Notes under the pieces: generated by a model
Database searches by the model: none
What the model was told of the DNA's origin: nothing
The model's input: the letters and a program-made list of their open reading frames with translations, nothing else
NCBI GenBank assembly: GCA_043754535.1
Contig: JAYUUN010000056.1
Location: 1-42,351, forward strand
Origin: Chloroflexota bacterium
GTDB taxonomy: Bacteria; Chloroflexota; Chloroflexia; QHBQ01
Direction of reading: 5' to 3'
DNA: 42,351 nucleotides
Translations under genes and position numbers: made by a program
Part shown: positions 41,256-41,348 of the stretch, one piece after another
Layout: every line of letters begins with the position of its first letter
Position numbering within the stretch: position 1 is the stretch's first letter

Positions 41256-41348
41256 GAGGCAATTCTGCCTCCATCATGTGTGGTTAAGGAGCGTCTGGCT
41301 CCCATGTTATGTGGTTAAGAGGCTATGCGCCCCCATGTTGTGTGTGAC
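41256..41348 (-). repeat. Three tandem 31-32-nt units (A/C-rich linker + 5-6 bp hairpin) upstream of metY
   Basis: Sense strand: CACACAACATG-GGGGC gcata GCCTC | TTAACCACATAACATG-GGAGC cagac GCTCC | TTAACCACACATGATG-GAGGCA gaat TGCCTC, then RBS and ATG. Confidence 0.7.

Follow-up and report, generated by a model that had tools for sequence, protein, structure and literature searches.

Why should the 121 nt that separate asd from metY carry three small hairpins in tandem, and what might they do for the gene that follows? The question arises in the window, the whole stretch of 42,351 nt analyzed here, for which a first-pass annotation made from the letters alone had drawn three mini-hairpins with conserved linkers beside the metY ribosome-binding site and had offered three mechanisms: a binding site for an RNA-binding regulator, a methionine-sensing re-initiation device, or phased DNA sites. 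Its sequence, coordinates and strand are correct on re-reading, and the three-hairpin array on the coding strand of the asd–metY gap is real.

Anatomy and operon setting of the array

The gap runs on the minus strand from the asd stop codon (41359) to the metY ATG (41237) and is occupied by three units of ~31 nt, each composed of a CA-rich, G-poor linker of 13–14 nt and a hairpin of 6–8 bp with a purine-rich 5′ arm. Read along the minus strand from 41348 to 41256, the linkers alternate with stems GGGGC/GCCTC, GGAGC/GCTCC and GAGGCA/TGCCTC. Linker 1 (41335..41348) is CA-rich, contains CACAACAT and has an ATG at the base of hairpin 1 (41318..41334; 6 bp, two of them G.U, with a 5-nt loop), the stem of which starts 24 nt past the asd stop. 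Linker 2 (41304..41317) is G-free and leads to hairpin 2 (41287..41303; 6 bp), while linker 3 (41274..41286), with ATGATG in this genome (G000), leads to hairpin 3 (41254..41273; 8 bp, 4-nt loop). The putative Shine-Dalgarno sequence of metY, AAAGGGA (41246..41252), follows 8 nt before the ATG; all of these features lie on the minus strand. The stems pair as listed in the first-pass annotation but extend to 6, 6 and 8 bp once G.U pairs are counted, and its periods of 31 and 32 nt hold for the 3′ arms, whereas the 5′ arms are spaced by 31 and 31 nt; the 18 nt it measured from the last hairpin arm, as drawn there, to the metY ATG (41237) are correct. What stays constant across four versions of the unit (three from G000 and one from its congener, G001) is CACAYA and its spacing from a stem of the form RGRRGC-loop-GCYYCU; CACAYA is also the best-kept stretch of the units (5–6 of 6 bases). 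Identity between the loops of different units is 0–3 of 5 bases, mostly in agreement with the variable loops first reported, but loops 1 and 3 have 3 of 5 bases in common and are thus not fully free.

Although first described as a "metY leader", the gap is intra-operon and not a known 5′ leader. The operon order is ask, asd, the gap, metY, a membrane protein (transporter), metX and hom; it is complete on one contig in G001, and in G000 two contigs (C34 and C56) overlap across it. All on the minus strand, asd (41359..42351; 5′ end cut by the contig end) encodes an aspartate-semialdehyde dehydrogenase over the cut-off of NF006416 and TIGR00978, metY (39804..41237) an O-acetylhomoserine/O-acetylserine sulfhydrylase (TIGR01326, 630.6 bits against a cut-off of 495.1) and metX (37674..38846) a homoserine O-acetyltransferase over the cut-off of NF001209. 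The best families of the hom-like homoserine dehydrogenase (36431..37615) fall below cut-off, as does NF007909, the only match of the membrane protein (38847..39620), which we take from the look of its sequence to be TauE/SafE-like. MetY itself has an N-terminal low-complexity extension of ~48 residues (NGNGNG...; window 41100-41237), present with other sequence in two genomes of the sister genus (G002 and G004).

The head of the operon bears a SAM-I riboswitch (64.1 bits, over cut-off) and then a T-box, so that the array is internal to an operon already under RNA control. The T-box of G000 and G001 scores 60.3 bits, under the Rfam cut-off of 93, with an E-value of 1.5e-12; identification of this second RNA as a lysine riboswitch was considered and proved wrong. 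The same tandem of SAM-I and T-box, each with a terminator-like hairpin, is seen at G000:C34:1303-1846 (minus), L050:8293-8837 and L051:5396-5940. SAM and T-box regulons are known in the Chloroflexi (PMC3766115), and a Xanthomonas SAM-I leader is described as a tRNA-binding platform (PMC7270179).

Folding and allelic variation

The centroid fold in both alleles consists of the three hairpins. Over 101 nt the sense strand folds with z = -2.65 (2 of 200 shuffles equally good), while the antisense strand yields z = -0.79 and loses hairpins 1 and 2; over a wider 141 nt, z is -0.06 in G000 and -1.16 in G001. All non-Watson-Crick stem pairs are G.U on the coding strand, an asymmetry that points to single-stranded folding, and no sigma-70-like promoter was matched in the gap, although near-consensus promoters occur elsewhere in the organism. 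Both observations make phased DNA sites the least supported of the three mechanisms first offered. Such sites would lie three helical turns apart at an internal promoter and would presumably be NrdR-like or DnaA-like. Their exact 31-bp period, the first 9 bases of unit 1 held in common with a probable NrdR box before nrdR, and what we take to be a resemblance of the linker to a DnaA box (one mismatch) speak for them, but the right half of the NrdR box is absent from every unit, unit 1 equals the box at only 10 of 16 positions by eye, and the reading is most improbable. A pair of 16-bp palindromic NrdR boxes was also sought by comparison without a weight matrix, and only the left half was found. 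The gene nrdR is itself preceded (G000:C93, 91467-91907, minus) by probable NrdR boxes beside a near-consensus promoter, ahead of an nrdR-ribonucleotide reductase operon.

A genome-wide search for the unit pattern, a check that had been proposed at the outset, confirmed the array as single-copy. A descriptor of three 6-bp hairpins with G-poor linkers of 11–17 nt, written after the element had been seen, has 1 match among 16,417 hairpins of the genome, and BLAST of the genome with the array returned nothing else longer than 17 nt. The single locus found with BLAST, descriptor and covariance model does not fit a REP/BIME-type repeat, which has many copies in gaps; a separate family of longer palindromes has 16 strand-hits in the genome. 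The longest stretch that the array has in common with any of the 46 tRNAs, as a sign of tRNA origin or pairing, is 8 nt. The gap holds no intrinsic terminator on the coding strand (a single match on the plus strand, against 1.9 expected by chance), and the lack of a terminator-like site on the minus strand speaks against a classical transcription attenuator.

The statement that the array is not a known riboswitch holds: Rfam 15, which includes SAM-I to VI, SAM/SAH, SAH, guanidine-II and T-box families, has no match at gathering score in the window for the array and none at E ≤ 10 in 41100-41600. A tandem riboswitch of a new class, sensing a small molecule (SAM, SAH, homocysteine or methionine) in a pocket of linker and stem, would be consistent with this result, with the conserved unpaired bases and with a place adjoining the ribosome-binding site of a methionine gene. 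It is nevertheless very improbable, given that the array shows neither a conserved loop nor a partner for a tertiary contact, that the operon already has a SAM-I switch and that riboswitch classes usually spread wider than one genus.

The congener G001 is ~93% identical to G000 over the region. Within the gap the two alleles differ at 9 positions and one indel, with 72 consecutive bases spanning units 1 and 2 identical and seven differences clustered in unit 3, all of them transitions. Five of the seven fall in the 8-bp stem of hairpin 3, where all pairing is kept and one pair is changed on both sides. One of the seven removes the third ATG, which reads ACA in G001, and leaves linker 3 of G001 without an ATG, such that the ATG first reported to end each linker does so in G000 but not throughout the congener. 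The G000 allele is unchanged in the gap in two contigs (X6 and X8) from two other studies, while the G001 allele recurs in one contig of depth 4 (X12) that may be the source of G001 and is not counted as independent. Four-fold sites of the congeners differ by 15–20%. The gap between metY and the transporter gene is ~96% identical and about as conserved as the asd–metY gap, so the invariance of the array alone proves little. That downstream gap (39621-39803, 183 nt), with an identity well above the four-fold sites, may hold another element.

All 30 of 30 cells pair over the four unit versions, with a two-sided change in only one of the six core pairs. The covariation score was equalled by 66 of 500 shuffles; in simulations, random stem changes kept all pairs with P of 0.013–0.05 when transitions made up 60–80% of changes and of 0.13–0.16 when all changes were transitions. 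Covariation in the stems is accordingly suggestive only. The covariance analysis that had been called for found no broken pair but two-sided change in 1/6 core pairs, and the selection on RNA structure claimed from compensatory changes is favored by the complete pairing but not established, with 66/500 shuffles as good and P up to ~0.15. The alleles are too few to prove selection on the array.

These comparisons also bear on whether the array is a relic of local triplication of a ribosome-binding region, in which copying errors at palindromes, or only the hiding of stray Shine-Dalgarno-like arms, preserved the stems and which has no regulatory role. Confinement to one genus, the likeness of the units to the hom ribosome-binding region and the unrelated repeats and palindromes in the gaps of the sister genus are all consistent with a relic, as is the fact that all seven unit-3 differences are transitions, which favor G.U-compatible outcomes. 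Yet pairing survives every stem change across the four unit versions, and 72 bases are unchanged against a four-fold divergence of 15–20%, though a nearby gap is similarly conserved; a relic is decidedly unlikely.

Distribution and known relatives

The array was found in two species only, both of one genus of uncultured Chloroflexia. A covariance model of the whole element recovered 2 of 150 class genomes, both of the array genus; with a unit model that scored 150 candidates in each of 5 family genomes, 2 of these genomes were positive. A relaxed unit pattern matched 1 of 401 phylum genomes, G000 itself, and the exact tandem-unit pattern, run over genome contigs, 1 stretch, in G001. With one mismatch allowed, the linker pattern occurs in 11 of 41 relatives, exact paired matches being limited to G000 and G001; the single one-mismatch matches number 10, compared with 13 for a reversed control, and none has an array by eye. 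The tallies of 41 relatives and 150 class genomes include four unpublished genomes (G007, G012, G015 and G034) on which no positive claim rests, and the one linker match in G034 is due to chance. No array was seen in 29 other metY leaders inspected by eye, nothing outside the genus was returned by the descriptor over 201 loci or the unit model over 37 sources, and the viral contigs and plasmids searched held 0 arrays each. A metagenome scan with Asd gave 241 confirmed stretches, and among the best 80 of these only L052 is close, with the same element. The assembled asd–metY gaps of the sister genus (G002 and G004) lack the array and carry unrelated repeats and palindromes instead. It should be noted that these negatives mean "not found in those searched", many of the genomes being incomplete. 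Absence from orthologous leaders had been named as an outcome that would count against the element; the congener keeps the array, but it was not found outside the genus. No published description was found in the literature searched, though supplementary motif tables could hold one. Judged from these comparisons, the array is a real, genus-restricted RNA element in a regulatory position, undescribed as far as searched.

Small tandem hairpins are known from guanidine-II (mini-ykkC) and ANTAR targets, in which loops are conserved and stems variable. The array resembles these in its small, variable-stem hairpins beside a ribosome-binding site and differs from them in that its loops vary, its linkers are kept and it has no Rfam match; with loop identity of 0–3/5 between units in place of a conserved loop, membership was rejected. 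CsrA/RsmA sites present GGA in hairpin loops, and this candidate too was rejected, a loop GGA occurring only in unit 3 of G001 and CsrA (PF02599) being without match in G000.

Among known systems, the array would work most like leader-ORF translational attenuators, to which the ermC type belongs, and CA-rich enhancers, and is no member of an Rfam family. The likeness to the attenuators would lie in an arm that, by prediction, may cover a downstream ribosome-binding site according to ribosome position; the array differs in having no run of sensing codons, in lying within an operon coupled to an upstream stop codon, in its three repeats and in a predicted default that is open rather than covered. 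The polycysteine short ORFs of mycobacteria (bioRxiv 10.1101/834739) are alike as short ORFs before an amino-acid gene, and Cys leader peptides are also described (PMC1262725).

For the CA-rich linkers, three reports provide context: in E. coli, ribosomes use CA tails as standby sites (PMC5934652), C-rich non-SD sites have been selected in vitro (PMC3310771), and the GcvB target consensus CACAACAT is regarded as an enhancer (PMC5900567). What the array shares with these enhancers and GcvB sites (PMC5934652, PMC5900567) is CA-rich sequence left unpaired ahead of a gene for amino-acid biosynthesis; it differs in having three copies in phase, with a hairpin after each, and in belonging to a lineage in which GcvB and Hfq were not found. 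A stable structure shortly after an intra-operon stop codon, as in the ribosome termination structure of PMC7518266, is a further likeness, whereas the array is triple, has conserved linkers and upstream AUGs, and places its first stem 24 nt from the stop.

One explanation is that the array is signal-blind, a constitutive enhancer or insulator in which hairpins keep three CA-rich ribosome landing sites for metY single-stranded, stop read-on from asd or protect the end of a processed mRNA. Of 1,848 predicted starts, 23 have CACAYA in front of them; the expectation of 8.4 comes from the genome as a whole and exaggerates the enrichment. Since the genes concerned are of mixed function, CACAYA is a general pre-SD feature in this genome. 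The documented CA repeats and CA-rich enhancers (PMC5934652 and PMC5900567), the insulation of re-initiation by structure after stop codons (PMC7518266) and the near-invariance of the CACAYA core (5–6/6) agree with such a role. It gives no account of the ATG at the asd stop or of those at two hairpin bases, and the hairpins would probably be weak nuclease barriers; a constitutive role is possible, if doubtful.

The first mechanism on the original list, a regulator acting in trans, would have a protein or G/U-rich small RNA bind CACAYA beside each stem of the triple site and block ribosome loading. The distance from CACAYA to the stem, equal in all four unit versions, suits such a factor, as does CACAACAT, the GcvB target consensus of PMC5900567, which is exact in linker 1 and variant in linkers 2 and 3. 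Before hom in the same operon, a look-alike of linker and 5′ arm (37622..37641, minus) agrees with unit 2 at 15 of 20 positions by eye and folds, by prediction, with its CA stretch in a hairpin loop; CACAYAAC is found before 5 of 1,848 starts. Nevertheless, GcvB (RF00022) was found in 0 of 5 family genomes (83–89% complete) and Hfq (PF17209) had no match in G000 (88.9% complete), which speaks against a GcvB target despite the consensus; CsrA had no match in G000 either; a crude scan of non-coding DNA for complementary G/U seeds showed no obvious small-RNA gene by eye; and no copy of the array precedes metK, the two other SAM-I targets, or the metH-like, metE-like and thrC genes. A trans-acting factor is doubtful. 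The hom gene is also preceded by a TACAAT box-like hexamer (window 37622-37660, minus), and in G001 the gap before hom contains a 13-nt unit repeated three times.

Proposed ribosome-operated control of metY

The array probably adjusts how metY is translated. The explanation favored here, tentatively and at well below even confidence, is a cis-acting mRNA element that sets metY translation and is operated by ribosomes: with initiator Met-tRNA in ample supply, they would re-initiate at weak upstream AUGs and be diverted from metY. A predicted upstream frame of 16 codons, uORF1 (41307..41357, minus; MDGVTHNMGAHSLLTT), begins 1 nt after the asd stop in G000 and 0 nt after it in G001, runs in the same frame as metY, has a second ATG at 41336 at the base of hairpin 1 and ends with a TAA in linker 2. 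The first micro-ORF of the first-pass annotation exists, but is only the second half of this frame. In both alleles the TAA is followed, one base on, by the ATG of uORF2 at the base of hairpin 2 (41039..41305, minus; 88 predicted codons), which crosses the metY start out of frame and may be a chance frame. The lengths of both uORFs are equal in the two alleles, but at 96% identity this says little. The ATG adjoining the asd stop is kept in both alleles despite the indel and two substitutions beside it, and a post hoc count over 214 comparable same-strand gaps found 2 with an ATG that close to the upstream stop. Five ATG per 121 nt are reached by 0.5% of comparable gaps and at least three, as in G001, by 8.4%. 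The re-initiation device proposed at first thus gains from the ATG at the asd stop and is weakened by loss of the third ATG in G001. The 16 codons of uORF1 include 2 Met and 3 Thr, no Cys and no run of Met codons. TTA-ACC-ACA is in frame in both uORFs, TTA making up 0.3% of Leu codons; the ARAGORN list of 46 tRNAs for G000 (assembly 88.9% complete) has none for Leu TTA and does include tRNA-SeC.

Once the 5′ arm of hairpin 2 is masked, its 3′ arm and the two U that follow are predicted to be free to pair with the ribosome-binding site of metY. When the mRNA is masked to gap positions ~57–68, the expected 3′ edge of a ribosome placed at the stop of uORF1 or the start of uORF2, predicted access to the site falls in both alleles, from 0.71 to 0.07 and from 0.70 to 0.13, and only to 0.23–0.24 with a slightly different stretch. 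Drops as strong were seen for 2–3 of 400 random genome hairpins, a loose control, for 64 and 56 of 250 purine-rich, composition-matched genome hairpins, and for 16 and 24 of 120 pair-order permutations. Opening of hairpin 1 was not special, and the covered state is reached through different pairings in the two alleles. As composition-matched controls do as well, a site-covering switch fold is possible, not demonstrated.

From the observed anatomy, the two alleles and the lineage pattern, we infer every step of the mechanism. Ribosomes terminating on asd would re-initiate at the ATG beside its stop or, alternatively, would be recruited by the CA-rich linkers and initiate at hairpin-base AUGs that lack an SD. 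The end of uORF1, TAA-C-ATG, would hand them to uORF2 and out of frame over the metY start, and a ribosome at this junction would open hairpin 2, freeing its pyrimidine-rich arm to cover the metY ribosome-binding site. Every hand-over would require initiator Met-tRNA, such that plentiful Met-tRNA would divert ribosomes from metY. When methionine is short, the relay would fail, the hairpins would remain closed, the linkers would serve as landing sites and translation of metY would begin at the gene's own site. Stalling of a ribosome on the Leu-Thr-Thr codons that precede the uORF1 stop would act in the same direction. The missing third ATG in G001, the absence of a Met run in uORF1 and a covering fold that is neither robust nor specific all count against the relay. 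Ribosome control of metY may exist nearby, as two genomes of another family of the order carry a Cys-bearing leader ORF and a terminator before the gene. At these loci (L005:1043-1330 and L006:1026-1303) metY has a promoter, a short Cys-rich leader ORF (one ending MGMACCPG, the other of 34 aa with five Cys) and a terminator, which looks like a classical Cys attenuator.

The lineage pattern may be connected to the head of the operon. T-box specificity is read from the specifier codon and the antiterminator bulge that matches the tRNA end. G000 and G001 have specifier ACC followed by A and bulge UGGA, which fits the tRNA-Thr of the array genome, ending in U73, while G002, G003 and G004 have AUG with UGGU, which fits tRNA-Met (the T-boxes of G002 and G004 precede ask; the G003 contig ends ahead of the gene). 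The head T-box thus looks Thr-specific in the array genus and Met-specific in the sister genus; the specifier register is ambiguous, with Tyr and Cys alternatives of poorer fit to the bulge. Specificity has apparently switched within one family. Presence of the array coincides with a head T-box that has lost its Met-specific appearance, and the array-less sister genus keeps the Met signature; this correlation amounts to one evolutionary event and lies beyond statistical testing. Under ribosome-operated control, the element would restore the methionine input lost at the operon head when the T-box changed specificity.

In yeast GCN4, a shortage of initiator tRNA allows ribosomes to pass over upstream ORFs that serve as decoys. 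That the array is a bacterial counterpart, a two-step relay of CA-linker/AUG/hairpin modules measuring initiator Met-tRNA that arose after the T-box passed from Met to Thr, is unlikely; the analogy, which we infer, extends only to the logic of the favored explanation, as GCN4 relies on eukaryotic scanning and there is no sequence relation. If regulatory, the array would be a translational control that is young and modular, built from copies of a single 31-nt unit, and a new regulator in an operon whose tandem SAM-I/T-box leader had switched tRNA specificity; if only an enhancer or relic, it would be a lineage curiosity. The array fits a 130-nt reporter insert, which makes initiator-tRNA sensing through re-initiation in bacteria directly testable.

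Other parts of the genome provide further observations. Beyond hom, 33733-36423 encodes an unusual DnaE-like protein of 896 aa, matching DNA polymerase III alpha only over residues ~62–259 and far below cut-off, and 32793-33674 a metallo-beta-lactamase-fold hydrolase with every family score far below cut-off. On contig C29 of G000 (minus strand, downstream of 38720), a PLP-enzyme gene lies behind a SAM-I switch, and the ORFs that follow presumably form a Mec/CysO/MoeB-type sulfur-carrier set.
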